A stretch of 64,000 bases of DNA from an uncultured Gammaproteobacteria bacterium. Its GTDB lineage: Bacteria > Patescibacteriota > Patescibacteriia > Magasanikbacterales > GWA2-37-8. Every line of letters begins with the position of its first letter. The first letter of the stretch is position 1. Where the stretch lies: contig CAZXML010000001.1 of assembly GCA_964641245.1 (NCBI GenBank), forward strand, positions 45,065 to 109,064, given 5' to 3'. Both the position numbers and the translations under genes were made by a program. The notes below the pieces were generated by a model that saw nothing but the letters and a program-made list of their open reading frames with translations, did no database searches and was not told the DNA's origin. This document shows positions 7,401 through 64,000 of this stretch, one piece after another.

Positions 7401-10400
7401 GTGGATTATTCCGGCCAAGACAGCAATTCAATGCGCGTCCGCGTGCGGGGCAGAGACCGATTTAATAACATCGGCGACTTTACTCAATCCACAGATTTTA
7501 ATTTAGACACATTATCTCCGGCAACACTCACCACCGCCGATTTAATTTCCCAGCCTAATGCCGGCGATACCACGGCTTCAATCGGAGGGTCATTTACGGA
7601 AACTCACCCCAACACCAATGATTTCTATATTGCTATTAATGGCGGGGCTTATGGTTCGGCCACTGCCGGTACAGCCAACACTGCCGCTCCATCCAATCAG
7701 GCCACTGGCGTTGGTGCTACTTTAACCGGTAATGATTATATTTCCAAAGTAAAAATTGCCCACGCCGATGATTTTGGCCAGGCAACCACCAACGAAAATA
7801 CTTCTCCGGCCACCAGCCTAAAATATGTTAAGCCGTACACACCGTCCGCTCCCACAGTAAATAATCCGCAAAATACTTCCGTAACCGTTGCCGTTAACTC
7901 GCATGCCAGCGAAAGCGCTTCTGTGGAGTACGCTATTGCCGAAGTTTCCACCGGTAATTATATACAAACCAATGGCACACTCGGCGCCAGCGCGGTTTGG
8001 AAAACGCTTGGCACCGGCGCCGGGAAGTGGGGGAATGTATCCGGCGTAACCGGCACAATTAGTGTCAGCGGTCTTACTTCACCGGTAGCAAATTACAGTT
8101 TTAAAGTTAAATCGCGCAATCCTTCGGACTCTCTGCACGCCTCCGCCAGCGAAAGTAATTTTTCCACTATCGTAGGAATCAGCAACACCGCGCCCGGTAT
8201 TTCCGTTTCCAGCGTTAGTCAGCAAACCGGCAATTCTTACGCTTTAATTAATTACGTCGGCACCGATACTCAAAATGACACAAACAATCTAAACGCGTTT
8301 GAATTTTCTACGAACACCGTAAATTGGTTTACTATGACTCAAAAATCCGGCGTGGGTAGTAGTGGAGTCAGCTCATTAATATTCTCATCAACCGGCACGA
8401 ACTTTATTTTTGCTTGGGATATTGCCACAGATTTGCCCGGATATGAATCCAGCGCCGTACGCATCCGCTTAAAATCCAATGACGGTCTTACAGACAGTAA
8501 TTTAGCGCAATCTTCCGCCTTCGCCGTAGATGCCAAAGCGCCGGTAGTTTCCGGTATCAGCGCCAGTCAAGCGCCAAGCACCGGTATATTTACTTTTGAA
8601 TATACTCTGGCCGATAATTCCGCCGCCAGCAATACAATCTCACTACAAATTTCCGATGATAGCGGTTCTACCTGGACCGTGCCCACCACTTCAGCATCCG
8701 GCGATGTTGGTAGCGGTGTATCCGCCGGTTCAGCCCGTTCTATAACATGGAATCCGGCCACCAATTATCCAAACGCCGAAAGTAGTAATTTCAGAATCCG
8801 AATTCGCGGTACCGATATATATAGTAATGTCGGATCCTATGCAACGTCCTCATTATTCGCCGTAGACACCAAAGGCCCCGTAGTCAGTTCGGTTTCAGCG
8901 GTACAAAGCACCAGCACGGGTAAAGTAACTGTTTCATATTCATTCTCCGACATCACTTCCGCCGGTAACTCAACCGAATTCCAGGTTTCTTCCAACAACG
9001 GCTCAACCTGGGTTGTTGCCACCACCACCCGTAGCGGAGAAATCGGTTCCGGTCAAAGCACCGGTTCAAAAACATTTATCTGGGACGCGCCCACGGATTT
9101 TAACGGCCAGTCCAATTCGCAAATGATGGTTCGCGTCCGCGCCACTGATTATTTTGGCAACCTTGGTAGTTTTACCAATTCTTCCGCTTTCTCGCTTGAT
9201 ACCGCCGCTCCGGTTGTTTCCAGTTTAACCGGCGTGCAAATAACCAATTCCACCACCGTTCAATTTACTTATAATTTAGCAGACACCCAATCCAGCGCAT
9301 CCGTCATCGCTCAAGTTTCCTCCGACGGCGGCAGTACCTGGACTGTTCCGGTCACAACACTTGCCGGAAATATCGGTTCTGCGGTTAACACTGGCAGTGG
9401 GCTCTCTATTACTTGGCTAGTCGGTACGGATTATGGCGGACAGGAATCAAATACAATGCGGGTGAGATTGCGGGCCACGGATAGTTATGGAAACGTTAGC
9501 GCATTTTTTACATCAGCAGATTTTTCTATAAATACGCTAGCGCCGGAGTCTGTCGTTTCTGCGCCGACTGTGTCAGGTGGAGTTGCAATGCCAGTATCCG
9601 TAGTAGCGGCAGTTATTGACCTTATCCCGCCTGCCGCGCCACTTGTGTTTAGCCCAACTGCCGGTAGTGTAATCGGTGAGGCTGAGCCGACTATAATTGG
9701 CGGCTCTGAACCTGGAGCAGTTATCAACATTGTTTTGGAAGGAGAAAATAAGTTTATTGCCGAAGCGGACGCTAATGGCGCTTGGCGATTCATCTTGCCG
9801 TCGCAATTTGCTCTTCAAAACGGACAACATATCTTTACTTTAACGGCCGTTGATCAGGCCGGCAATGTTAGCGCCCCAACACAATTCACTCTTACAAAAT
9901 CTTCTTCAGCGCCGGTTAGCGCCGTTTCACCAGCTGGTGGTACTGCCGGCCTCCCCGGGCTTCTTTCAGGTGTTTTACCACCCACCCCATCCGTCGCATT
10001 AGTCCGCCAAAATATAGAAGCCACCGAAGTAGCATCCTTGCAGGTACCAAAAATTAGTACCACCACGCCCGGCGTAGTGGGCAGTGATTTTGTGTTCTCC
10101 GGCACGGCTCTGCCAAATCAGGAAGTACTGGTATATTTCCACAGTAGTCAGGCTCTTATCTACCGCACCCGTTCCGACAGCAACGGTTTCTGGCAGGTAG
10201 CCCACGCGCAAAGCACCGCCGAATTAACACCCGGTGATCATACAATCTTTGCCGTCTCCGTAGATCCGGTGAACAAAGTAAAAAGCCGGCCCAGCGCGGT
10301 TTCCAGTTTCACCATAAGAAAAAATTTCTGGGTAAGCGTATTCAACGTGTTAAATCTCCAGACCACATTAGTTACTTTAATGGTTCTTGGGTTCACCATG

Positions 10401-10445
10401 CTTTGGCTTTACCGTCTGCGAGTTAGGCAGGGTGTTGAGGTTTAG
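1434..10445 (+). CDS. Giant (3003 aa) repetitive cell-surface protein with N- and C-terminal TM anchors and Ig/FN3-like tandem domains
   Basis: 9-kb uninterrupted ORF. At least 10 copies of a ~100-aa domain (ISYDLTD...SGSTWT...TGNVGSG...GKTITWNAG.DYSGQ...RVRA.D). Three ~680-aa super-repeats start at about 3480, 5510 and 7500, each beginning LQAQPNAGDTT. C-terminal Ig-like domains are followed by a hydrophobic helix and the tail RLRVRQGVEV. Confidence 0.85.
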   Translation: MKASWLNIFFHFSGKIFKLKQGLIASTRWYVAVYYALLLFFVELALAIISFPLYFLVSPKDIQKGGLYSLPGPQASINEYLWRRRIGLTTGVGATSVFLLKVVLVGVVSFYFLGAQKLLADSQDWTFGTPSDYTYNSSIVEITGGVARLKDLGSLVASSTINSGFTTNSVGWTNADWTDPGNVTVGQTRQTSGGNTGAYVDVDIAITGSATANRSGAGYWQQTFITNVATPDTATLNLDWKSITYTSPTPPATYRLYAFIETTSGAPTATNTAIWNSGEITAATSWASISAVDIVSKIPTAGTYYLKIAAYATSPLATGAYSFISGFDNVIVNWSKTTHSYSTANPTTTPVASLSAPKIMSWNGFTENATLNGGSISYQLTADNGTNWKYWNGSAWATSSVSNFNIASVINSNIATFPTSSNQIKWRAYMTSDGTQQVSLSGVSITYTQNDPPHIISLSPAQNTGNGTVYVAYSLQDANSDPESLVDYEYSLTGAFAGEQTTMTASTSDAAHNGITGLSSSPIGTAHTFVWDARAQLGNIVTTTVYVRLRANDGIANGAYTTSSVFTVDYVAPIVSNVSAVQTPGTTTVSISYDLTDFTASGLNVELGISNDSGSTWTIATTSATGNVGSGQTTGTGKTITWNAGADYSGQSLSTMRARVKARDNWQNQGTFTSSSNFSLDTLAPATLATANLQAQPNAGDTTVLIGGTFTEANPNTNDFYVAINNGVYSSATAGTGNTASPSNQATDVGATLDGNDFISKVKITHTDDFGNSGNNENTSPTTTYIYVKPYTPSAPTLNNPVTTRLDLTINPHASETSGLEYAIQETTSGFFVQTDGTLAASVVWQILGTSAGQWGNITAVSGKARVTGLSSPVANYVFKVKSRNTGDTAHATSSESAYSATAQITNTAPSVSLSSYSQTTDGTRYVPINYTGTDAQGDINSLNQRQYSTDNSAWNTMTEKSGVGSSGITNLTFLSGGSSYNFAWDSNTDLPSVEDTTVYVRLRSTDTLASSSLATSNAFEIDNVNPVISTTTASQDSGARTVTITYNLTDANASNVLLEISSNSGSTWVVATSSATGAVGSGVTAGAGKTITWNAGTDFNSQYNTTMMVRVTPRDTFGNLGSSASSANFTVDTKSPTVTNVTAVQDSGASTFVFHYDIVEDSGNSRVVLAISSNSGSTWVVPTSSVSGDYGASVTPGTGKTITWDGGADYSSQEKSTMQIRLTATDSFSNNSVNTSADFNLDTYAPRITNVSASQNAGNTTVAISYDLADANTSTILLQISSDNGSSWTVPTTTATGNLGSNISAGTGKSISWNAGTDFSAQDISNMKIRLRGTDTFSNQSGYVTSSAFALDTKSPVVATTANLQAQPNAGDTTALIGGSFTETNPNTNNFYVALDGGSYGSATAGTGNTASPSDQSTATGVTLKGNNYISKVKIVHTDDFGLATTNENTSPATSLKYVKPYTPSAPTADNPAVGEVDVLVNANPSEVTGLQYAIYETTQSKYVQANGTLGVTPIWQTIGTSFGQWGNTTAISGKIRVNGLANASYTYQFKTKSRNSSDFFNTASSESALSAGASSANQAPSISINSAAQTTNGTQYITVNYTGTDLESETVSLVRYQYSTDNSIWNTMTEKSGVGSQGTSGLAFSAAGASHNFAWDVGADLANTEDTTVYVRLQANDGTSSGNTAVSSAFVVDTKNPAISSVTASQNSGAGTVAISYTLTDDSTSTIVMEMSSSSGSTYNVSVSSATGNVGAGISSGSGKSISWNAGTDFSGQELSTMKTRLRATDAFGNVGSLSASGLFDLDTKVPAVSNVSAIQSAGGGSVSITYDLSDTNQSTVVLEVSSSSGSTWLVPVSSVTGAVGSGVSGGTGKTITWNANADFSGQEFAGMIARVRATDIYSNAGSNVQSGAFSLDTKAPVVLNVGASQTAGTTTVVISYDLSDLGTSTVDVEISSNNGLGWTVATSTLTGSVGSNITAGFGKTVVWNAKVDYSGQDSNSMRVRVRGRDRFNNIGDFTQSTDFNLDTLSPATLTTADLISQPNAGDTTASIGGSFTETHPNTNDFYIAINGGAYGSATAGTANTAAPSNQATGVGATLTGNDYISKVKIAHADDFGQATTNENTSPATSLKYVKPYTPSAPTVNNPQNTSVTVAVNSHASESASVEYAIAEVSTGNYIQTNGTLGASAVWKTLGTGAGKWGNVSGVTGTISVSGLTSPVANYSFKVKSRNPSDSLHASASESNFSTIVGISNTAPGISVSSVSQQTGNSYALINYVGTDTQNDTNNLNAFEFSTNTVNWFTMTQKSGVGSSGVSSLIFSSTGTNFIFAWDIATDLPGYESSAVRIRLKSNDGLTDSNLAQSSAFAVDAKAPVVSGISASQAPSTGIFTFEYTLADNSAASNTISLQISDDSGSTWTVPTTSASGDVGSGVSAGSARSITWNPATNYPNAESSNFRIRIRGTDIYSNVGSYATSSLFAVDTKGPVVSSVSAVQSTSTGKVTVSYSFSDITSAGNSTEFQVSSNNGSTWVVATTTRSGEIGSGQSTGSKTFIWDAPTDFNGQSNSQMMVRVRATDYFGNLGSFTNSSAFSLDTAAPVVSSLTGVQITNSTTVQFTYNLADTQSSASVIAQVSSDGGSTWTVPVTTLAGNIGSAVNTGSGLSITWLVGTDYGGQESNTMRVRLRATDSYGNVSAFFTSADFSINTLAPESVVSAPTVSGGVAMPVSVVAAVIDLIPPAAPLVFSPTAGSVIGEAEPTIIGGSEPGAVINIVLEGENKFIAEADANGAWRFILPSQFALQNGQHIFTLTAVDQAGNVSAPTQFTLTKSSSAPVSAVSPAGGTAGLPGLLSGVLPPTPSVALVRQNIEATEVASLQVPKISTTTPGVVGSDFVFSGTALPNQEVLVYFHSSQALIYRTRSDSNGFWQVAHAQSTAELTPGDHTIFAVSVDPVNKVKSRPSAVSSFTIRKNFWVSVFNVLNLQTTLVTLMVLGFTMLWLYRLRVRQGVEV

Positions 10446-23244: not shown

Positions 23245-23527
23245 GGGTGGATTCCTGAGCGGTCAAAAGGGGCAGACTGTAGTAAAATGCAGCTCTTGAG
23301 GGAAACTTCAGGATGAACTTTCTGGGATAACGGTGAAAGCTAAGGCAGGTGCTATGCCAATACCGTGGGAACCCCGATATTTGGTCGGGGGCGCCGTAGA
23401 GACTAGATACCAGAGTGCCTAAAGTCAATGTGACTAAGGCAAAGATATAGTCCACGCCAGAAGGAAACTTTTGGATTAGTGAAATCTGCTGGCTCCGCCT
23501 TCGTAGGTTCGAATCCTACTCCACCCA
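23245..23527 (+). ncRNA. ssrA: Probable tmRNA (ssrA); the tRNA-like domain is clear but the tag ORF is not resolved
   Basis: The 5' GGGTGGA pairs with the 3' TCCACCC. A perfect T-arm GTAGG-TTCGAAT-CCTAC and a discriminator A follow. About 283 nt, with no ORF. Confidence 0.5.
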
Positions 23528-51913: not shown

Positions 51914-52663
51914 ATGGAATTGATAAGTGTCATCATCCCCGTCTACAACCACGCCCACACCCTAAAAAGATCCCTAGATTCTATTTTTAACCAAACCTAC
52001 CGCCCTTTAGAGGTAATCGTAGTCAACGACGGCAGCACCGACAATTTCTCCGAAGTCATGTCAAGCTGTCATCCTGAACTTGTTTCAGGATCTATCACTG
52101 TAAAAACAATCTCCCAACCCAACTCCGGCGCCCCCACCGCCCGCAACAACGGCTTCGCCCTCTCCAAAGGCGACTACGTCATCTTCTGGGACGCCGACAC
52201 CCTCGCCAACCCCCAAATGCTCCAAAAAATGTTCTCTTATTTACAAAAACACCCCGACGCTTCTTATTCCTACTCCCAATTCAAATTCGGCTGGAAAACC
52301 ATAAAAAGCCACCCCTTCGACGCTCAAAAACTAAAGCAATTAAATTACATCGACGTCACCTCCCTCATCCGCCGCCAATCTCTCAATTGTCATCCTGAAC
52401 GCAGTGAAGGATCCCTCTCTGTCTGCCCCTTCGACCCATCCCTAAAACGTTTCCAAGACTGGGACCTCTGGCTCACTCTCTTATCCCGTGGAAAAACCGG
52501 CGTCTTCATCCCCGAAGTCCTCTACGAAAAAGTAGTCGGCTCCCGCGAAGGCATCAGCACCTGGCTCCCCAGTTTTATGTATCTTCTACCCTGGAAAACC
52601 AAAGAAGTAAAAAAATACGAATCCGCCCGTTCAATCATTATAAAAAAACACAATCTATTGTAG
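51914..52663 (+). CDS. Glycosyltransferase family 2, with two in-frame partial palindromic-element insertions
   Basis: ISVIIPVYNHAHTLKRSL...LEVIVVNDGSTD, and a D.D region. The insertions encode SSCHPELVSGSITV (52063-52100) and NCHPERSEGSLSVCP (~52378-52425). Confidence 0.7.
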   Translation: MELISVIIPVYNHAHTLKRSLDSIFNQTYRPLEVIVVNDGSTDNFSEVMSSCHPELVSGSITVKTISQPNSGAPTARNNGFALSKGDYVIFWDADTLANPQMLQKMFSYLQKHPDASYSYSQFKFGWKTIKSHPFDAQKLKQLNYIDVTSLIRRQSLNCHPERSEGSLSVCPFDPSLKRFQDWDLWLTLLSRGKTGVFIPEVLYEKVVGSREGISTWLPSFMYLLPWKTKEVKKYESARSIIIKKHNLL

Positions 52664-52665
52664 TA

Positions 52666-52860
52666 TTTTGTCATCCTGAACTTGTTTCAGGATCTTTGTC
52701 CGTCAGTTGTCATCCTGTCCGTCATTTGTCATCCTGACAAAGGCCGTAGCCGCCGAAGGATCTATACCTATTAAAGAAAATCGTAAATTCGCGGCTTGTC
52801 ATCTAGTTTTTTAATTGTCATCCTGAACTTGTTTCAGGATCTATCATTTGTAAAACACCT
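52666..52860. repeat. Cluster of family-C / TGTCATCCTG hairpin elements
   Basis: At least four TGTCATCCTG termini. It matches 55184-55320. Confidence 0.75.
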
Positions 52861-52885
52861 CAGGAGAGCGTAAACTACCACCAAC

Positions 52886-53200
52886 ATGCCCACCAAAACC
52901 ATCCTCAACCGCCTCCAAAAAACCTGCGCGTGTTGCGGTAAAGCAATTCATGTCATCGTCTATTCTCCCGCAGCGAGCGGGATCCTCGACTCGTGGAGTC
53001 GGGAAAAAAAAGATTATCGCGGCGGCCATTTCTTTGGAAAACTCCCGCTATATACCAAAAAAGAGGAAGCGCGCGCCCACAGTTTTGGTTTTACAAAAGA
53101 ACTTTTTGGAAAAACAGAGGTAAGAGTCATGAAAAAAGACCCTAAGCCGTATGGGTATGTGGAGTATTGGGAGTGTCCGAAGTGTTATTGGCAAGGATAA
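52886..53200 (+). CDS. Small Cys-rich (zinc-ribbon-like) protein
   Basis: CACCGK...CPKCYW. It contains a CCCGCAGCGAGCGGGATCCTCGACTCGTGGAGTCGGG hairpin in frame. Confidence 0.45.
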   Translation: MPTKTILNRLQKTCACCGKAIHVIVYSPAASGILDSWSREKKDYRGGHFFGKLPLYTKKEEARAHSFGFTKELFGKTEVRVMKKDPKPYGYVEYWECPKCYWQG

Positions 53201-53404
53201 AACGAAGCCGTTCACTGGGCGGTTTTCGGCTTGAGTTTTGGGTGGGGAGGGGTGTTCGCTCAATGGTTCTCTCCCCATTTATTTGCAAGTCGAGTGAGAG
53301 AAAAGGACACAAAGTGTACTTTTCCGAGCGAGCGAAGCAAATATGTGGCAAAGCCCATATGGGAGAGATAAAGAGAGGGGTATTTTTCCCTTAAAATTTT
53401 TTTT

Positions 53405-53782
53405 ATGAAGCTAACCAAGATACAAATACAGGAAATTTGGGGTGATGACGGACCGTATTCTCAAGTGCAAATGATAGTGGAGACACGCATATTAGACGAC
53501 TCGGTAAGTCGAATTTTTATAAATGTTGAGGCTCAAATAAATCCCTTAACTTATAAAACCATAAAGCAGAATATAAATAAGTTTGAGGACGACGAGAAGA
53601 TACAACAGCTTTTTGATCATGCGCAATATCGAGGTAATAGTTATGGTTATGTAGCCAGTTCATTTTCAGAGGAGTTTACGGGTCCGGACGTTTTAGAACG
53701 AGCTCAATTTGCGGTCGAGTATACAAAGGAAAGTATAATTAAAATGCATAAATTTGTAATGGATTTGTTTGATATCGGGTAA
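53405..53782 (+). CDS. Hypothetical protein
   Basis: ORF only. Confidence 0.3.
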   Translation: MKLTKIQIQEIWGDDGPYSQVQMIVETRILDDSVSRIFINVEAQINPLTYKTIKQNINKFEDDEKIQQLFDHAQYRGNSYGYVASSFSEEFTGPDVLERAQFAVEYTKESIIKMHKFVMDLFDIG

Positions 53783-53990
53783 ACCTATGAGAAAAAAATC
53801 AAAAATAAAGCAACTACAATTATCGTCGGTAAAAAAAAGCAAAAAAATGGCTTGCAGGCACGACTATAAAAATGCAATTAAAGTTGGCAATATAGATTAT
53901 CAATGTCCGTTGTGCGGCAAGCTTTTAGATCCGCTCGAATGGTTCCTTATGAACAGCTTTAATTTTATTGATGTTGAAATTGAAAAATAA
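53769..53990 (+). CDS. Small Lys-rich zinc-ribbon protein
   Basis: CRHDY...CPLCGK. Confidence 0.3.
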   Translation: MISGKPMRKKSKIKQLQLSSVKKSKKMACRHDYKNAIKVGNIDYQCPLCGKLLDPLEWFLMNSFNFIDVEIEK

Positions 53991-53991
53991 T

Positions 53992-54222
53992 ATGAATGAC
54001 CTTATAAACATTAAAGTAATTCAGAAAGATTTTAACGGTGAGAAAAAGCGGTTCGTTAATGCCAGAGAATTGTATAAATGGCTGGGCGTGGGTAGAGATT
54101 TTTCCAATTGGATAAAAGACAGAATTGAAAAGTATGATTTTGTAGAAGACCTTGATTATTTTATAGCCATCGCCAAATTTGGCGATGGACTAAAACCCCA
54201 TAACACAGGCAAAATCGTATGA
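53992..54222 (+). CDS. AntA/AntB-type phage antirepressor N-terminal domain protein
   Basis: FVNARELYKWLGVGRDFSNWIKDRIEKYDFVEDLDYF matches the AntA-domain pattern. Confidence 0.5.
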   Translation: MNDLINIKVIQKDFNGEKKRFVNARELYKWLGVGRDFSNWIKDRIEKYDFVEDLDYFIAIAKFGDGLKPHNTGKIV

Positions 54223-54362
54223 TAGTAAAACGTAAAAAAGAATATTATGTCCTCTCCGAAAAAACCCGCAAAAATCTAGGCGGGCCGTATAAAACTCGGG
54301 CCGAGGCTGTTAAACGGTTGGGGCAGGTTGAGTTTTTTAAGCATAGGAAATAAGTTATATTT

Positions 54363-55013
54363 ATGTGGTATTTGTACTTAGACGAAAGTGGTGATTTGGG
54401 TTTTGATTTTGTAAATAAAAAACCATCGAAATTTTTTACGGTTGCCATTTTGGCATTGAGCACCCGCGACGCTAATCGCCAGATGATTAAAGCGGTTAAA
54501 ATTACGTTGCGTCGCAAGCTCAACAGCGCCAAGCGTCAAAAAAGAATCGCTCAGGAACTTAAAGGTACTGGTACAACGATAGAAGTAAAAAAGTATTTTT
54601 TCGGAAAGGCAAAAAAAATTAAATTTGGCATCTACTCTATAACGTTGAATAAGAAAAAAGTTTTTGAAAGATTAGCTAAAGATAAGCCGCGTATCTATAA
54701 CTATATCGCTCGTAAAGTTTTAGACCAAATTCCTTTTGAAAAGAATAATGGTGATAGGGTAGAGTTAATATTAGATAAATCAATGGCTAAACCGGAGATC
54801 GCTGAGTTTAATTCCTACATTCGTCGACAGTTGGAGGGCCGTTTATCACCCACCATTCCTTTGGATATTTATCACTGGCTTTCGCATGAGAATTACGGCT
54901 TGCAGGCTGTGGATTTGTTTTCTTGGGGGATATTTCAAAAATATGAACGACAAAACACCGAATGGTATGGTGTATTTGATGAAAAAGTAAGATTTGATGA
55001 ACAATTTTTATAA
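54363..55013 (+). CDS. DUF3800 family protein
   Basis: The N-terminal YLYLDESGD motif is the hallmark of DUF3800. Confidence 0.55.
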   Translation: MWYLYLDESGDLGFDFVNKKPSKFFTVAILALSTRDANRQMIKAVKITLRRKLNSAKRQKRIAQELKGTGTTIEVKKYFFGKAKKIKFGIYSITLNKKKVFERLAKDKPRIYNYIARKVLDQIPFEKNNGDRVELILDKSMAKPEIAEFNSYIRRQLEGRLSPTIPLDIYHWLSHENYGLQAVDLFSWGIFQKYERQNTEWYGVFDEKVRFDEQFL

Positions 55014-55183
55014 AACAAAAAAGCCCCTTGCGGGGAGGTAGCCTTATAGATTTGTGATGCCTAGATTATAGCCAACCGATGGATGGGAACATCTAGAACA
55101 ATCTACAAAGGACTTATACCTGACTCTAGAATACAGCTTTTTAACCTAAATGTCAATAGTTATCCACAGGTCATTTTATGCCT

Positions 55184-55340
55184 GTCATTCCCGCTTGTCA
55201 CTTGTCATCTCGCGTCTTTAACTGTCATCCTGAGCGAAGCGTAGGATCTATACCTATAAAAGAAAATCGTAAATTCGTATCTTGTCATCCTGAACTTGTT
55301 TCAGGATCTATTAGTTGTAAAACACCCCCAAAAAGCGTAA
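55184..55340. repeat. Cluster of family-D (TGTCATTCCCGC), short TGTCATC and family-C hairpin elements
   Basis: It matches the 52666-52860 cluster. Confidence 0.75.
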
Positions 55341-55352
55341 AATACAACCAAT

Positions 55353-55505
55353 ATGCCCACCAAAACAATCCTCAAACGCCTACAAAAAACCTGCGCGTGC
55401 TGCGGAAAAGCAATTCATGTTATTGTCTATTCTCCCGCAGCGAGCGGGATCCTCGACTCGTGGAGTCGGGACAAAAAAGATTATCGCGGCGGTTTTTTTA
55501 TTTAA
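55353..55505 (+). pseudogene. Truncated duplicate of the 52886-53200 Zn-ribbon gene
   Basis: MPTKTILKRLQKTCACCGKAIHVIVYSPAASGILDSWSRDKKDYRGG then a stop. It is ~90% identical to the first 50 codons of the upstream copy. Confidence 0.6.
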
Positions 55506-55582
55506 GTTTTAGGTGGCTCTCTCCCTATTTAGGGGAGAGATACAGAGTGGGGTATTTTTACCTTTATGTGTTTAGTTATTTT

Positions 55583-56248
55583 ATGACCAAAATTAAAGAT
55601 ATTCCTAAAATAGACAGACCCAGGGAAAAATTAATAAAGTACGGTCCGGAGAAATTATCTAACTCAGAATTGTTGGCAATTTTATTAGGTACGGGAGTAA
55701 AAGGTGTGAATGTAGTGGAATTATCAAATAAAATTCTAAAGAAATTTAGCAGCGTAGGTTTGGCCACCGCAAATTTTGATGAATTAAAAAATACTTTTGG
55801 CCTGGGTCCCGCCAAAGCCTGCGAAATCTCTGCTTGTTTTGAATTAGGACGTAGATTGCTAAAAGACAAGAAGTTCGCTTTGCTTTTGTCCCCTCAAGAG
55901 GTGTGGCAGGAGTTAAGGGATCTCCGGGATTTAAAGAAGGAGCATTTTGTTATTTTTTATCTTGATACCAGAAATCAGGAAATTAAACGGGACATCATTT
56001 CGTTCGGTACTCTTAATGCAAATTTAGTCCACCCACGCGAAGTATTTGAACCGGCCATTATCCACTGCGCCGCCCAAATTATCGTCGCCCACAACCACCC
56101 TTCCGGCAATCCTGAACCATCCGAAGAGGATATAGAAATCACCAAGCGTTTGGTGGAAGCGGGGAAGATATTGGGAATAGAGGTGTTAGATCATGTAATA
56201 GTAACTAAATCAGGCTTTAGTAGTCTTAAAGAGTTGGGCTTAATGTAA
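55583..56248 (+). CDS. radC: RadC-like JAB/MPN domain protein (UPF0758)
   Basis: HhH N-terminus and the JAMM motif HNHPSG...E. 221 aa from the internal ATG. The upstream ORF extension is a translation of the repeat cluster. Confidence 0.8.
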   Translation: MTKIKDIPKIDRPREKLIKYGPEKLSNSELLAILLGTGVKGVNVVELSNKILKKFSSVGLATANFDELKNTFGLGPAKACEISACFELGRRLLKDKKFALLLSPQEVWQELRDLRDLKKEHFVIFYLDTRNQEIKRDIISFGTLNANLVHPREVFEPAIIHCAAQIIVAHNHPSGNPEPSEEDIEITKRLVEAGKILGIEVLDHVIVTKSGFSSLKELGLM

Positions 56249-56385
56249 ATTTGACAAATCATTGTATGTACGTTATTATGTACATATCCGTATTCCCCGC
56301 TTGGGCGGGGTAGGGGTGGGTTGGCCACTTCATTGTCATCCCGACCGCAGTGGAGGGATCCCTTAACCATTTTAATTAATATAAT

Positions 56386-56739
56386 ATGAACACCAAAACC
56401 ACCCTCTCCATCTCCGAAGCCAGAAAAAAAATATTTGACATCGCCGAAGCAGTGCAACGCCCGGGGAATTATTATACCATTACAGAAAATGGAAAGCCAA
56501 AAGCGGTGCTGATGAGTGCGGAGGAATTTGAGTCGTGGGTAGAAACAATGGAAATTTTGAGTGACCCAAAAGCAATGAAACGGATTGAACAGGCGGAAAA
56601 GGAGCTAAGGCGCGGTGATTATGTAAGTTGGACTGATTTTAAAAAAGGATGGGGGCATACGCAAAAGACCGGTGTTATGGCATTGGCAGATAAAGGCAAA
56701 AAAAAGTATCGTGTTGGCGGTGGAAAAAAGAAGCGTTAA
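56386..56739 (+). CDS. Phd/YefM-family antitoxin
   Basis: LSISEARKKIFDIAEAV....YTITENGKPKAVLMSAEEFESW.ET.EIL. Confidence 0.7.
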   Translation: MNTKTTLSISEARKKIFDIAEAVQRPGNYYTITENGKPKAVLMSAEEFESWVETMEILSDPKAMKRIEQAEKELRRGDYVSWTDFKKGWGHTQKTGVMALADKGKKKYRVGGGKKKR

Positions 56740-56740
56740 T

Positions 56741-57004
56741 ATGCCCACAGAATTCTTTGTTAAAACACCTCCGTCAGTCCAAAAATCAATGCGTAAAATA
56801 CCTTTTCCGTGGATAGAAAGAATTAGAATGGCGATAGATAGTATTTCGATAGATCCATTCCAGGGTGAAAAAATGCTTGGACGATATAAACATGCGCGGA
56901 AAGTGCGTGTTTGGCCATATAGAATTATTTATGTTGTGGATAAGGTAAATAGAGTCGTTTCTCTGCTAGAAGTCGATCATCGGGGGAGTATGTCGTATGA
57001 TTAA
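56741..57004 (+). CDS. RelE/ParE-family toxin
   Basis: It starts 2 nt after the antitoxin stop. C-terminal YRIIYVVDKVNRVVSLLEVDHR. Confidence 0.7.
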   Translation: MPTEFFVKTPPSVQKSMRKIPFPWIERIRMAIDSISIDPFQGEKMLGRYKHARKVRVWPYRIIYVVDKVNRVVSLLEVDHRGSMSYD

Positions 57005-57183
57005 AAAGTTACAGTCTCCGCGTCTGGCCGTACAGGATAATTTATCGGGTATATAAAGACCTTGTTTTGTTGGTTATTATCCGTATTGGGCATCGGCAAG
57101 GAGTGTATTAATTTTCTTGACTTTATAGCTGAAATGGCGCAAAATTAAAGGGAATTATTTATGTATTTAACCGTGTATTTTAT

Positions 57184-58921: not shown

Positions 58922-60499
58922 ATGCCCACACTCAACTGGATCGGAAAAGATAAAATTACTAATCATGACAAGGATGTGCCGTTCCGGCTGTTGAAGAAAA
59001 ATAACAAACTTTCGCTTGGGCAAAGTGATAATTTGGTTGTGGAAGGTGATAATTTGGAGGCATTAAAGGCATTAATGCCTTTTTATTATAATAAAGTAAA
59101 ATGTATCTATATTGACCCACCATATAACACCGGCAATGAGGGGTGGGTTTATAACGACAGGGTAAATTCAACAAGAATTCAGGAGTGGCTGGGTAAGGCC
59201 GTCGGACCGGAAGGGGAGGATCTTACGCGCCACGACAAGTGGTTGTGCATGATGTATCCACGGCTAAAGCTGTTAAAAGATTTATTACGGGATGACGGAG
59301 TTATTTTTATTTCCATTGATGACAATGAACATTGTAGCTTGCGAATGATTGTGGATGAAATTTTTGGTATAGAAAATTTTGTTGAATCTTTTATCTGGAA
59401 ATCTAGACTTGGAAAAGGTGCTACTTCTCAGACTACAGCCAAATTGCATGAATATGTTGTGGCTTATGCAAAAAATATCCAACAACTGGAATTTAAAACC
59501 GACAAAAGAATTAGTGTTGGTGAGGCCAAAGAAAGACTGCGACAGTGGGGGCAAGGTGATCGAAGAGAGGATCGTCCCACGATGTATTATTCTGTGTATT
59601 CAAAAAAATTTGGTAAGGTATACCCGATAAGACCAGATGGAAGTGGTGGACGATGGCGCATAAGTAAAAATAAAATGGAGGAGTTAATTTCTGGCGGGTC
59701 TGTTATTTTTGAAAAACAGAAGGATGGTCGCATCGAAGCTTATAGAATTATACCGTCTGGTTCAGAAACAAATACCGCCTATTCATCTATTCTTAATTCT
59801 GACATTGTAAAAACGACCGCACACGGTAGTACGGAATTGAAGGAGGTTTTTGGTAAGCAAATTTTTGCTTACCCTAAACCCGCCAGCCTAATCAAAGAAT
59901 TAGTTTCGCTTTGTGCTGAAAAAGACAAAGAGGCGATAATTCTCGACTCATTTGCTGGTTCCGGCACAACTGGCCATGCGGTTTTGGAATTAAATAAAGA
60001 GGACGGTGGGAATCGTAAGTTTATTTTGGTAGAAATGGAAGAAAAAATTGCCAAAGAAATTACTTCGGAAAGAATGAGGCGGGTGATCGGCGGGTATTCC
60101 TATAAAACTAATAGCGATAAGTCAGTGAAAGTTGCTGGTTTAGGTGGCGGATTTGAATATGTTGAACTGGGTTCCACGTTATTTTCTAACGCCGGAGCGA
60201 TTAGTGACAGCGTAAAATATTTTGACTTGGCCAGCTATGTATTTTTTACTGAAACGCTTACCAATTTAGAAAAGAGGAAAGTTAAAGAGCCATATTTGGG
60301 TAATTTTGCTGATTCTGATTACTATCTACTGTTCACCGGCAAGGACAAAAATATTTTGGATCGTAAGTTTTTAAAACAAATCCAAAATAAAACTAGCCGC
60401 AACGTAATTTATGCAGATAAATGTTTATTAGATGAAGATATGTTGGAAAAGTACCAAATTATTTTCAAACAAATTCCGTATCAGATTAAGGTATATTAA
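58922..60499 (+). CDS. mod: Type III R-M Mod-like beta-class N6-adenine / N4-cytosine DNA methyltransferase
   Basis: Motif IV IYIDPPYN precedes motif I LDSFAGSGTTGHAV. Confidence 0.8.
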   Translation: MPTLNWIGKDKITNHDKDVPFRLLKKNNKLSLGQSDNLVVEGDNLEALKALMPFYYNKVKCIYIDPPYNTGNEGWVYNDRVNSTRIQEWLGKAVGPEGEDLTRHDKWLCMMYPRLKLLKDLLRDDGVIFISIDDNEHCSLRMIVDEIFGIENFVESFIWKSRLGKGATSQTTAKLHEYVVAYAKNIQQLEFKTDKRISVGEAKERLRQWGQGDRREDRPTMYYSVYSKKFGKVYPIRPDGSGGRWRISKNKMEELISGGSVIFEKQKDGRIEAYRIIPSGSETNTAYSSILNSDIVKTTAHGSTELKEVFGKQIFAYPKPASLIKELVSLCAEKDKEAIILDSFAGSGTTGHAVLELNKEDGGNRKFILVEMEEKIAKEITSERMRRVIGGYSYKTNSDKSVKVAGLGGGFEYVELGSTLFSNAGAISDSVKYFDLASYVFFTETLTNLEKRKVKEPYLGNFADSDYYLLFTGKDKNILDRKFLKQIQNKTSRNVIYADKCLLDEDMLEKYQIIFKQIPYQIKVY

Positions 60500-60897: not shown

Positions 60898-63183
60898 ATG
60901 CAGCTTAAAAAATACCAACAAAAAGTATTAGATGCTCTGGAAAAGTATGTTCTGGAGATTAAAAAATACGACACCGCCAAGGCGGCGGGTGTGGCTTTTA
61001 TGGTCCAAGCGGATAAGCAGTATAATTGGGTGCCGGAGTTGGGGAGTAGCCCATTCGTTTGTGTAAAGGTACCTACCGGTGGAGGTAAAACAATTATCGC
61101 TTCTTCGGCTTTAGGTGTTTTGTTTAAACAGTTTGTGCCGGAGAGAAATGATCACGGATTAGTAATGTGGTTTGTGCCTTCGGACGCAATTAAAAAACAA
61201 ACCTTAGATAATTTACGTAATCGTAAGCATCCTTACCGTTCGATTTTGGATGATCGTTTTGATACCGCAGTTAAAGTTTTTGATTTATCAGAAGCCAAGA
61301 CAATGAAGAAGGATGATTTACGGGATAATGCCTGCATAGTTGTTACGACTCTAAGCGCCTTTAGGCGCACTGACAGAGAGTGGCTTAAGGTTTTTCAAGA
61401 CAACGGAAGTCTGATGACTCATTTTGAGAATGAAGAAATTGACAAGTTGGATTTTTTACAGAAAAACAAACAAGGTGGTGTGGTTTTTTCTTTGGCCAAT
61501 GTTATAAAATTATATAATCCTTTGGTGATTGTTGATGAAGGGCATAATGTCCAAACGAATTTGTCTTTTGACATGTTGAAGGAATTGAATCCGGCGTTTA
61601 TTTTGGAGTTTACTGCCACGCCAAAAGGGCAAAGCAATGTTTTGATAAATATTTCAGCTCAGGAATTGAAAGAAGAGAAAATGATTAAAATGCCAATTTA
61701 TTTGGCGAATCAAACACCTTGGCAAGATACTGTTTATGCCGGTATTGAGAAAATTAAGGAATTGGAAAAGATCACACAAAAATTAAAAGGTGAATACATA
61801 CGACCAATTATGCTTATTCAGGCGGAGCAAGAATTGGTTAATGAAAAGAAAATTTATGTAGATAAAATTGTTAAATTTTTATTGGAGGAAGCAAAAATTC
61901 CCGCTGAACAAATCGCCATTCAAACCAGTAAAACTAAGCAGTTGCCTACAGCCGAAGAATTAGCCGATAAAAAATGTCCGATAAGATATATTATTACAGT
62001 TAATGCTTTGCGTGAGGGTTGGGACTGTCCTTTCGCCTATGTTTTGGTGTCGGTATCCAATATGGGCGCCAGACTTTCGGTGGAGCAAACCATCGGTCGT
62101 CTAATGCGTTTACCGGGAGCCAAAGAAAAAGCGGACCCGGCTTTAAATTCGGCCTATGTTTTTGCTTGTACTAGGAATTTTAGTGAAACATCAGAAATGG
62201 TAATTAAGGCGTTGCAAGAAAACGGATATGAGGATGTCGTTGGTGTTGCAAACGGTGTTAATATTGTGCGGAATGTTTTTGCACGGAAAATTAAAGATAA
62301 AAATATTATTTTGCCATTATTGAATATTAAAGAAGGTGAAAAATATCGTAAGATGGATTATGTTGGAGATTTAATTGGCGATGACTCAATATTGGTTTCC
62401 GCTTCTTTTTCTGGTGGTGTTAAGCTGGAAAGTGATAGTAAAATGATAAAAATTGATATTGGTCATGAGGGTGAACTGGTGCGCGATTCTGTTGGAAAAT
62501 TGGGGCTTATTTACCATCATCAGGATTTATCGCGCGCAGAATTAGAAAGTTGGTTTATTACCAAAATTCAACGCGGCTTTATTTCCATAAAAGAAATGAG
62601 TGGATATGTCTCTAAAGCCATTGGAGTTTTATTAAGTAAGTATAGTTTAAGCGCTCTTAGTACAAATCGTTATCAGGTCAAAGAAGAAATTGATCGACAG
62701 ATTGATTTAGCGGTTGATAAACATACAAAGAAAAAATTTATTGAATTAAAAAAGTTGTTAAAATCTGAAGGCGAAGGCCTTGTGTTGGGAGCTGAAATTA
62801 GTTTACTACAATACACTAAAGATAACTTTATTAAGCACCTATACGAACGAGCTGGAGCAATGAATCGGGAAGAATTAGATTTAGCGTTTAAAATTGATAA
62901 TTCGGATAATGTTTTATGGTGGTTCCGCAATCCGGACGTTGGCGGGTTTTATATTCAAGGTTGGCTGAAGCATAAATTTTATCCGGATTTTGTTGTTAAA
63001 ACTAAAAAAGGCAATTATTTCGTTTTGGAATATAAAGGTGAACATTTAGAAGGATCGGAAGATTCGGAATATAAAATGGAGATAGGAAAAATATGGCAGG
63101 AGTTAGCAGATAAAAATTATCACTTTGAATGGGTGGACAAGAAAAATATGGTGGAGGTAGTTGATAAAATTAGCAAATTATGA
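60898..63183 (+). CDS. res: Type III restriction enzyme Res subunit (SF2 helicase plus a PD-(D/E)xK nuclease)
   Basis: Motif I KVPTGGGKT, motif II VIVDEGHN, motif III FTATP, ALREGWDCP, motif VI QTIGRLMR, and a C-terminal PD...EYK. Confidence 0.8.
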   Translation: MQLKKYQQKVLDALEKYVLEIKKYDTAKAAGVAFMVQADKQYNWVPELGSSPFVCVKVPTGGGKTIIASSALGVLFKQFVPERNDHGLVMWFVPSDAIKKQTLDNLRNRKHPYRSILDDRFDTAVKVFDLSEAKTMKKDDLRDNACIVVTTLSAFRRTDREWLKVFQDNGSLMTHFENEEIDKLDFLQKNKQGGVVFSLANVIKLYNPLVIVDEGHNVQTNLSFDMLKELNPAFILEFTATPKGQSNVLINISAQELKEEKMIKMPIYLANQTPWQDTVYAGIEKIKELEKITQKLKGEYIRPIMLIQAEQELVNEKKIYVDKIVKFLLEEAKIPAEQIAIQTSKTKQLPTAEELADKKCPIRYIITVNALREGWDCPFAYVLVSVSNMGARLSVEQTIGRLMRLPGAKEKADPALNSAYVFACTRNFSETSEMVIKALQENGYEDVVGVANGVNIVRNVFARKIKDKNIILPLLNIKEGEKYRKMDYVGDLIGDDSILVSASFSGGVKLESDSKMIKIDIGHEGELVRDSVGKLGLIYHHQDLSRAELESWFITKIQRGFISIKEMSGYVSKAIGVLLSKYSLSALSTNRYQVKEEIDRQIDLAVDKHTKKKFIELKKLLKSEGEGLVLGAEISLLQYTKDNFIKHLYERAGAMNREELDLAFKIDNSDNVLWWFRNPDVGGFYIQGWLKHKFYPDFVVKTKKGNYFVLEYKGEHLEGSEDSEYKMEIGKIWQELADKNYHFEWVDKKNMVEVVDKISKL

Positions 63184-63815
63184 ACCCTGAAACCAAAGCT
63201 AGAATCATAGTTAATTTAAAAAGATGGGTTTTTAATCACGATTTTAATTTCATCAAAGCACTAGTTGCGTTAGCTGTTTTAGTTTTTTTATGTTTAGCTC
63301 TTATTAATCAATTCGGTCCCGTAACAAAGACTAATGATGATTTTTCTATTGTTTTAAGCATGGTAAGCATGCTAGTTTTAGGCGGAACATTTTTTGCTAT
63401 TTTTTGGAATACATTAGAAACTAAAAGTTTAAAAGAGCTTCAGATGAAACAGATAAATCTTAGTTTAAAACCAATACTTATTATATTCAAGAAGCACCAC
63501 CCTAATCATGGGGATGTAGATACGATAAAAAATATTGGACTTGGAGTTGCGAATAATATTAAATTTGAAGAATTGCAAGATAGCGGTGGTTTCAAACATC
63601 AATTTAATACAAAAAAATTATTAGCACCTCAAGAAGAATATAGAGTCGAGATGAGTGTTTTGGGTAGTATGTTACCGCCAATTTTTTCTTTTATAAATTT
63701 ATTTAGAAATGAAAAGATTGTATTAAAGGTTGACTTTGAAGACATTGATGGCATGCCATATCGTACGAATTTAGAGATCGACAAAGGGGAAATTAGGATT
63801 ATTAATCAAGTTTAG
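63180..63815 (+). CDS. Hypothetical membrane protein overlapping the res stop (ATGA)
   Basis: ORF with N-terminal TM helices, translationally coupled to res. Confidence 0.35.
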   Translation: MNPETKARIIVNLKRWVFNHDFNFIKALVALAVLVFLCLALINQFGPVTKTNDDFSIVLSMVSMLVLGGTFFAIFWNTLETKSLKELQMKQINLSLKPILIIFKKHHPNHGDVDTIKNIGLGVANNIKFEELQDSGGFKHQFNTKKLLAPQEEYRVEMSVLGSMLPPIFSFINLFRNEKIVLKVDFEDIDGMPYRTNLEIDKGEIRIINQV

Positions 63816-64000
63816 TGTTTTAATCCATGTCCCAATACTACAACCCCCAACGCACATCGCGAATGTACATACCGGGCGCATCAGAACCATTCAAACTCTC
63901 TCGCTCCAAGATAGATCTTTTTTTAAACTGCCCTCGCTGTTGTGTAGATCTGTAGTTTTAAGCGGTTTTTCCTTCAAAAAGTTATCCACATTGCAAGATT

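Follow-up and report, generated by a model that had tools for sequence, protein, structure and literature searches.

The window analysed here is a 64,000-nt stretch of contig CAZXML010000001.1 from an uncultured bacterium, and its region from 52.7 to 55.6 kb, between a GT2 gene and a RadC gene, is the left edge of a hypervariable accessory/defence hotspot of Candidatus Magasanikbacteria (Candidate Phyla Radiation (CPR)/Patescibacteria). The region holds two copies of a cassette encoding a small Zn-ribbon protein (Zn), the left one intact and the right one truncated, and between them four independent modules: o125; o67 together with a truncated AntA gene; o44; and a DUF3800 gene together with the gene of a DUF3800-V small RNA (sRNA). 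The account that we favour joins the hotspot edge, the two Zn cassettes, recombination between hotspot haplotypes, the four-module mosaic and the DUF3800/sRNA unit, and as a whole we consider it likely. Coordinates given without a locus are window positions; L numbers denote the loci compared with the window.

Two copies of a Zn-ribbon cassette

The two cassettes consist of the following parts.

52664–52860, plus strand: cluster of hairpins resembling repetitive extragenic palindromic (REP) elements (TGTCATCCTGA...), 3′ of the GT2 gene and 5′ of the left Zn copy; the repeat itself begins at 52727
52848–52876, plus strand: left Zn promoter-like site, TTGTAA-17 nt-TAAACT, read from the sequence and conserved in L095, L008 and L003
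52886–53200, plus strand: intact Zn-ribbon gene, 104 aa, CxxC ... YRGGHFFG ... CPxC
53201–53404, plus strand: 3′ part of the left cassette, made up of an AAGCCG/CGGCTT stem, a CTCTCCCC/GGGGAGAG hairpin with 78 nt inserted, and a terminator formed by GAGGGGTATTTTTCCCTT and the T run behind it (z = -3.2)
55183–55310, plus strand: hairpin-element cluster before the right Zn copy, with the repeat starting at 55223; collinear with the cluster that precedes Zn in L003
55315–55343, plus strand: right promoter-like site, TTGTAA-17 nt-TAAAAT, found by promoter scan and homologous to the left site
55353–55505, plus strand: Zn′ pseudogene, 50 codons, without the second zinc knuckle; 194-nt deletion between GGCGG repeats
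55502–55573, plus strand: kept 3′ end of the right cassette with terminator hairpins (z = -3.1), directly 5′ of RadC (55583–56248) and arranged as in L008 (4671–4726)

A first-pass annotation of this DNA, made from its letters, had described a ~290-bp direct repeat composed of a hairpin cluster and the 5′ part of a Zn-ribbon gene, ending at 53040 and 55495. The repeat is real: a repeat search in the window gives a 211-nt block with 91.5% identity (52815–53025 versus 55282–55492) and a second block with 90% identity (52754–52803 versus 55240–55289), and a gap-tolerant alignment widens it to 52727–53025 versus 55223–55492, with 11- and 19-nt indels among the hairpins. The copies lie 2.47 kb apart in the same orientation, and their longest identical run is 47 nt; compared by blastn with the other copy on contig L001, one copy gives E = 1e-87, and the repeat is thus not due to chance. 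Its composition had been read correctly as far as the hairpins of the TGTCATCCTGA type and the 140 nt at the start of the Zn open reading frame (ORF) are concerned, but its ends had not, since homology picks up again at 53231–53279 (55502–55529) and at 53358–53392 (55530–55564; 89%), in a zone that spans 53231–53401 and 55502–55573 overall and reaches the terminator. The right copy is therefore a whole cassette with an internal deletion of 194 nt, corresponding to 53026–53219 and located between two GGCGG pentamers. The left copy has 78 extra nucleotides (53280–53357) within the loop of the terminator hairpin, and no second occurrence of this insert was found within the window. Each repeat is a self-contained Zn-ribbon cassette comprising a REP-like hairpin cluster, a sigma-70 promoter, an ORF and a terminator, the promoter-gene-terminator units being 350 and 675 nt long.

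The right ORF is a 50-codon pseudogene, as had been proposed, and has lost the C-terminal CPxC, a motif nearly invariant among 20 homologues; a single 194-nt deletion at a microhomology has recently inactivated this copy. The Zn protein has no match in Pfam, PHROG or PADLOC. Its AlphaFold2 model has a mean pLDDT of 80, in which the in-frame 13-codon insert of a hairpin element is disordered, and no match was found among PDB folds (best Foldseek E-value, 0.49). An exact-sequence look-up of the Zn and RadC proteins of the window returned no match, and the near-identical P0001 was taken instead. The 3′ element of the left cassette is 91% identical to the element behind Zn in L008.

The source is an uncultured CPR genome, and in the Joint Genome Institute (JGI) assembly of this population a break falls at ~61.98 kb, within the hotspot, both of which could speak for an assembly artefact, namely, a chimeric join of two strain variants. 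However, L001, an independent contig from a JGI groundwater metagenome that is 99.97% identical to the window over 10,979 nt, carries both copies with 8 kb on each side, which argues against assembly collapse. Moreover, 18 mismatches in 211 positions and several indels separate the two copies, which cannot therefore represent one collapsed or expanded repeat. We consider an artefact highly improbable.

The hairpin elements themselves are dispersed, with 29 matches of the TGTCATCCTGA type in the window against 0.44 expected. They make up the left third of each repeat, and their loop sequences differ between the two copies, as would be expected if the repeats reflected nothing but independent insertions of such elements. 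By contrast, the best conserved parts of the repeat are the promoter with the 140 coding nucleotides and, next, the terminator region, each of which occurs exactly twice in the window and none of which is dispersed. Insertion of hairpin elements as the sole explanation, which had been named at the outset as the finding that would overturn the first reading, is refuted, and we give it practically no weight. The hairpin cluster and Zn recur as a unit in at least five contexts, after GT2, DUF3800, AntA, RhuM and ParE. In L095, a cluster with the identical loop sequence CAAAGGCCGTAGCCGCCGA precedes Zn; L003 also has a cluster before Zn, and L008 has a related one behind GT2, without Zn there. Elements are also found in frame within coding genes, namely, in GT2 (52067–52108 and 52388–52429), where they encode the peptides CHPELVSGS and CHPERSEGSL, and in Zn (52964–53004/55431–55471), where they encode PAASGILDSWSRE. 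They are absent from the orthologues in L017, L021, L026 and L041 and from the 91-aa Zn homologues, and the same GT2 loop holds different elements in other lineages. The hairpins may serve as recombination substrates at this locus. Another element, GGGAGAGA...GAGAGGGGT, was considered as a general junction site and rejected: in the matches examined it occurs only with Zn cassettes (window/L001 and L008). Exact matches are also present in L041 and L046.

Modules between the copies and the DUF3800-V RNA

The segment between the two cassettes contains six features.

53405–53782, plus strand: o125, hypothetical protein with 145 homologues; the family is widespread in CPR bacteria and forms an independent module
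53787–53990, plus strand: o67, small Cys-containing protein, 96% identical at the aa level to a 67-aa gene of L002–L004
53992–54222, plus strand: AntA′, N-terminal quarter of a 313-aa AntA antirepressor-like gene, matching positions 1–38 of the 68 of the Pfam AntA model
54219–54353, plus strand: o44, small ORF of 44 aa that adjoins DUF3800 in L023 too and whose 3′ tail recurs at module junctions in relatives
54363–55013, plus strand: DUF3800 gene (DUF3800a), 216 aa; Pfam PF12686, E = 1.8e-13; phrog_9243; N-terminal DES and C-terminal QxxD motifs intact
55016–55156, minus strand: DUF3800-V sRNA gene (Rfam RF02964), convergent with DUF3800; structured domain to 55031

The earlier list of interior genes holds for the 125-aa hypothetical protein and for DUF3800. 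By contrast, its AntA gene is an N-terminal fragment (38/68 of the domain), the other small genes present are a 67-aa Cys-containing ORF and a 44-aa ORF, and the DUF3800-V RNA had been missed. The latter matches RF02964 on the minus strand (55128–55031) with 53.6 bits against a gathering score of 37.4, covering model positions 1–96 of 96. A -35 box, TTGACA (55156–55151), and a -10 box, TATTCT (55133–55128), precede it and were also found by promoter scan; the putative transcription start is at ~55121, the first paired base, and a terminator, CCCCGCAAGGGG with a T run, ends at ~55016, touching the stop codon of DUF3800. On the plus strand, no terminator was found ahead of the sRNA region. An RNAalifold alignment of 59 distinct sequences yields 25 base pairs, 18 of which show compensatory (double-sided) changes. 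Column conservation across 58 loci has a sharp left border at the ATG of DUF3800 and fades beyond ~55170; in the same loci, the -35 and -10 boxes are conserved while the 17-nt spacer between them is not, and the minus-strand terminator (CCCCGNAAGGGG and a T run) abuts the DUF3800 stop. Score, covariation and adjacency to DUF3800 all fit, and we assign this sRNA, on sequence grounds, to RF02964. The conserved promoter boxes and the terminator further suggest that an RNA of ~105 nt is expressed.

The RNA is tightly linked to its gene, 81 of 82 nhmmer hits being separated by at most 80 nt from the 3′ end of a DUF3800a homologue. The lone exception (L112, 3321–3410, minus strand, 53 bits) is located downstream of a gene for an NYN-domain protein (ORF 2525–3169, Pfam E = 5e-17). 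DUF3800-V RNAs, likewise above the gathering score, are also present in L008, L101 and L112. A metagenome scan anchored on DUF3800a found 186 related loci, of which 80 were kept. Across these, blastn homology to the window runs from ~54362 to 55117–55170, that is, the ORF and 105–155 nt of 3′ flank, in otherwise unrelated contexts. DUF3800 and the sRNA are thus a two-part module of ~0.8 kb that travels in about 80 unrelated contexts. The scan contained no strain above 84% aa identity and did not yield a near-isogenic 'before' state.

DUF3800 proteins have been modelled as RNase H/H2-like and tied to type VII retrons and to Cas12a2/a3 and Cas13 loci (PMC7736814, PMC10910872, PMC13594972, 2026 bioRxiv preprint), and eleven DUF3800-associated RNA motifs have been described without a functional hypothesis (Weinberg et al. 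2017, PMC5737381). The protein of the window is a predicted RNase H-like nuclease, and the pair may be a small nuclease-plus-RNA defence or addiction module. Its anatomy would fit either antisense control of DUF3800 mRNA that is read through or a direct partnership between RNA and protein. The near-obligate linkage and the clean anatomy make the 0.8-kb pair a tractable unit for tests of DUF3800/RNA function.

The remaining modules have their own counterparts elsewhere. Homology of o125 to L016 starts at 53404, one base 5′ of the ATG, and the segment 53404–53775 is 80% identical. The usual partner of o67 is a full-length AntA gene, and indeed 53786–54231 matches o67 and the 5′ end of AntA in L003 at 85–94%; homology to the L003 AntA gene stops at 54231, and AntA′ is joined to o44 at ATCGT|ATGAT. 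From 54214 to 54420, the window matches o44-DUF3800 of L023 (86%). All module junctions, at 53404, 53786, 54214 and 54361, lie at most 8 nt from a start codon. Neither o125 nor o44 belongs to a Pfam or PHROG family, o67 has a weak match only, to a PHROG family without assigned function, and PADLOC has no model for Zn, o125, o67, o44, DUF3800a, the SDH-type protease described below or the ORF that follows it (o244). A conserved Zn-o125 pair was considered and rejected, the 125-aa gene that follows Zn in L011–L014 being non-homologous to o125 (BLASTP E = 0.015).

Separately, the 3′ tail of o44 (...GGCAGGTTGAGTTTTTTAAGCAT...) was observed behind one unrelated gene after another, in frame and reduced to 24, 17 and 8 codons, and is the most recurrent 14-mer of the variable regions. 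It is found in L016 (10700–10745, 11133–11205 and 11548–11580), L015 (3028 and 4414), L018 (2738), L023 (8540) and the window (54322–54345). The tail may provide the following gene with its ribosome-binding region, or it may be the trace of repeated recombination at a single spot.

Hotspot context and origin of the duplicate

A tblastn map over 94 loci defines a conserved backbone, S9-PST-GT4-GT2-(MazG-like)-[variable]-o208-RF-1 domain-GIY-YIG, in which PST-GT4-GT2 are envelope genes. GT2, with or without MazG, on the left and o208/RF-1/GIY-YIG on the right are found in L002, L015, L017–L027, L035 and, via L176, in the genome of the window. L176 continues this genome (99.95% over 61942–64000), with o208 and RF-1 ~3–5 kb past the window end. 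The interval from GT2 to o208 measures 514 nt in L035 and 1.7–6.8 kb in eleven further genomes at species level; it reaches 10.6 kb in L002 and exceeds 11.3 kb here. The same core genes flank it across genomes, its length and content vary, and it is rich in genes of defence, toxin-antitoxin (TA) and mobile genetic element (MGE) types. In the window, the genes to the right of the repeats are RadC (55583–56248), Phd/ParE, an SDH-type protease and a type III restriction-modification (R-M) pair, Mod (58922–60499) and Res (60898–63183), between which a 115-aa ORF runs on the opposite strand. SocA-PemK is found in L176, and HsdM/RhuM and GmrSD in relatives.

Gene order differs from relative to relative. 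L008 has GT2-MazG-DUF3800-o228-Zn-RadC-Phd-ParE-HsdM-RhuM, L002–L004 have GT2-MazG-o67-AntA(313 aa)-Zn-o253-RadC-Mod-helicase-DUF3800-PDDEXK-BroN-o208, and L016 has GT2-MazG-o67-AntA-o228-o116-o125-(o44 remnant)-pyrimidine-dimer glycosylase. Other orders are GT2-MazG-o44-DUF3800 (L023), GT2-MazG-RadC-Phd-ParE (L017), RadC-Phd-ParE-Zn (L009–L014), RhuM-Zn (L095) and DUF3800 directly followed by Zn (L101). In L023, DUF3800 is 95% identical at the aa level to that of the window whereas GT2 is only 62% identical, indicating exchange between divergent lineages. Two stretches of the window align with L008, 54361–55183 with 2754–3576 (86%) and 55518–57007 with 4671–6194 (85%), and in L008 Zn lies directly before RadC. 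DUF3800 and the truncated right Zn copy are thus in the ancestral order, DUF3800-Zn-RadC. Zn was found beside GT2 in 0 of the 80 species-level GT2-anchored loci, this slot being usually occupied by MazG, and only the intact left copy is in an unusual place.

These comparisons bear directly on the initial proposal that the region is a remnant of an integrated phage, satellite or other mobile element with attachment-site (att)-like direct-repeat ends. Same-orientation repeats 2.47 kb apart, an interior GC content of 0.31–0.39 against 0.43–0.50, an AntA-type gene and a DUF3800 family listed in PHROG would all suit such an element. However, Pfam searches of the interior and flanking ORFs and of L001 and L176, covering ~44–73 kb of the genome, revealed no integrase, resolvase or transposase. 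Moreover, the repeats are full gene cassettes rather than short att cores, AntA is only a fragment, and low GC extends to the right of the repeat (e.g. 0.29 at 58.2–58.8 kb). The interior modules separate in relatives, where DUF3800-Zn-RadC occurs without the left repeat; the comparison for an empty site, suggested at the outset, gave none in relatives, which have this or other module orders instead. Finally, close relatives of DUF3800a, Zn and o125 were absent from 2.9 million viral contigs. The proposal is largely refuted and, in our judgement, very unlikely to be correct. As a mobile-element candidate the region is ordinary, a recombination scar in an accessory hotspot, and neither a prophage nor an att-bounded island should be annotated here.

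A second repeat made of a gene fragment and an intact gene (window 63827–63941 and L176 1886–4051) lies in the same hotspot and supports this general picture. The window carries a 41-codon 5′ fragment of a PDDEXK gene (63827–63941) that is 88.7% identical to L176 3299–3413, the start of the intact gene 1.5 kb downstream, and the homology begins exactly at the ATG. Between fragment and intact copy lies an HTH/SocA_Panacea-PemK TA module with its own promoter, TTGCAA-17-TATAAT. Together with AntA′ and Zn′, there are three gene fragments in ~11 kb. A more far-reaching proposal would be that DUF3800 and DUF3800-V form a minimal nuclease-RNA system (an addiction/defence module or an RNA-dependent RNase H-like effector) that lacks its own recombinase and spreads among CPR genomes as a cassette of 0.8 kb with gene-precise borders, and that the start-codon junctions, o44-tail remnants and fragment-plus-intact scars reflect a dedicated, undescribed process of cassette exchange rather than plain homologous or illegitimate recombination and selection. 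We put this forward as a speculation and consider it unlikely.

As to the origin of the duplicate, each Zn copy has the other as its closest relative. Left and right are 91.5% identical over the 211 nt that they share, compared with 89.1% for right and L095, the highest value to any other copy, 86.3% for left and L095, 84.1% for right and L008 and 78.3% for left and L008. The distance of the right copy to L008 equals that of its syntenic flanks. Of the 18 differences, the left copy has the derived state at 11 and the right copy at 5; 10 fall into the 71 upstream nucleotides and 8 into the 140 coding nucleotides, the latter comprising 6 synonymous and 2 conservative non-synonymous changes. The predominance of synonymous changes indicates that both copies were under purifying selection until the single recent lesion in the right one. 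'Duplication-mediated capture', which had been offered beside the phage reading, comes nearer to the truth in that the Zn cassette truly occurs twice, but its duplication did not capture the intervening genes, since DUF3800 and the right copy stand in ancestral order.

In our view, the simplest route to the present arrangement, to which we would give an even chance, is homologous recombination between hotspot haplotypes that differ in the slot of the Zn cassette. Two haplotypes of related strains would have carried the cassette in different places; the left crossover would have fallen in GT2 or its hairpin cluster and the right one in a shared module such as o44/DUF3800, and the recombinant would have kept both Zn copies, of which the redundant one would then decay. 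Several points weigh against this account. The postulated donor haplotype, with Zn beside GT2 and in no other slot, was not found among the relatives, nor was the precise 'before' state of the lineage, the closest informative relative, L008, being ~15% divergent. The copies are sister sequences, which is compatible with ectopic duplication within one genome followed by long co-residence, and gene conversion between them could blur the tree. In addition, the label 'defence/accessory hotspot' is taken from the neighbouring genes.

The main alternative is such an intragenomic event, in which the RadC-proximal cassette would have been pasted beside GT2 by non-allelic recombination or gene conversion, with the hairpin cluster as left and the terminator element as right homology, MazG being replaced and the original copy decaying. 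Consistent with it, the left and right copies are mutually closest, MazG is missing exactly at the site of the left copy, and the repeated elements at both cassette ends are also present at the target (the hairpin cluster behind GT2 in L008 and the GGGAGAGA...GAGAGGGGT element). On the other hand, 8.5% divergence with 6 synonymous and 2 non-synonymous changes would mean that two redundant copies had stayed functional for long, the excess of derived states in the left copy suggests evolution in another background, and the junction element was not found before o125 in relatives. We therefore regard ectopic duplication as possible though rather unlikely, and prefer recombination between haplotypes.

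Several further observations were made in the window. The segment 57184–58918, with a GC content of 0.28–0.32, encodes a ClpP-like SDH-type serine protease (340 aa, phrog_11747, E = 6e-38) and an overlapping 244-aa ORF (o244) that has no family match; the two could be a two-gene accessory module. At 61942–61979, the Res gene is split in the JGI assembly of this population, with L001 ending and L176 starting there, which may reflect strain heterogeneity in the hotspot. Between an ORF and tRNA-Thr (23270–23474, plus strand), the Rfam group I intron model is matched exactly at threshold, with 50.5 bits against 50. The left end of the window (1434–10445) holds a single 3003-aa ORF and, behind it, a 958-aa ORF.

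Comparison with known systems

Prophages and satellites flanked by attL and attR share with this locus the direct repeats around a segment of lower GC with an antirepressor-like gene. The locus differs from them in the absence of a recombinase, in repeats that are cassettes, in an interior that is not one unit and in relatives without a matching empty site. Integrons were also considered: no IntI-type tyrosine recombinase was found in ~30 kb around the site, and the Zn cassette and the sRNA have promoters of their own. The GTTGAGT in the o44-tail motif matches GTTRRRY, the form of the attC core site. The o44 tail as an attC-like site was set aside as a primary reading, being an in-frame remnant (8–24 codons) of the coding end of o44 and not an imperfect palindrome.

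REP elements and Rickettsia palindromic elements (RPEs) are short dispersed palindromes. The hairpins described here resemble them in being short and dispersed, in forming intergenic clusters and in lying in frame within GT2 and Zn, but belong to another sequence family. In phage-type mosaicism, as in lambdoid phages and mycobacteriophages, modules are joined at gene boundaries. Likewise, homology here starts 0–8 nt from the start codon for o125, o67, o44, DUF3800 and the PDDEXK fragment, and the modules are reassorted in varied orders; in contrast to phages, the location is chromosomal and structural phage genes were found in none of the relatives examined.

Chromosomal hotspots of horizontal gene transfer and defence islands between core genes are a concept derived from E. 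coli and other pan-genomes. The locus agrees with it in its conserved flanks, an interval that varies widely, the enrichment in R-M, TA and MGE-derived genes and the leftover gene fragments. It differs in belonging to an ultra-small CPR genome, in that no integrase, tRNA or transposase marks the site, and in that all genes here are co-oriented with the upstream ribosomal-protein and envelope operons. CPR genomes are usually seen as streamlined. The GT2/MazG-to-o208 interval is a well-delimited variable hotspot that, with its three gene fragments and two independent fragment-plus-intact repeats, is handy for studying the exchange of defence genes in the CPR.

Type I and type III TA systems, which pair a protein toxin with an RNA antitoxin, resemble the DUF3800/sRNA pair in having a cis-encoded RNA next to or convergent with the protein gene. 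The closest counterpart is the DUF3800-V motif itself (RF02964), with which the sRNA shares the full-length match, the covariation, the adjacency to DUF3800 and a Rho-independent terminator, and from which it shows no difference in kind. The question of what DUF3800 proteins and their RNAs do dates from 2017 (PMC5737381) and now also bears on the CRISPR-associated DUF3800 proteins (PMC10910872, PMC13594972). To the description of RF02964, the present analysis adds the conserved -35 and -10 boxes, the convergent layout with the terminator at the stop codon, the sharp borders of the module and one copy adjacent to an NYN-domain gene.

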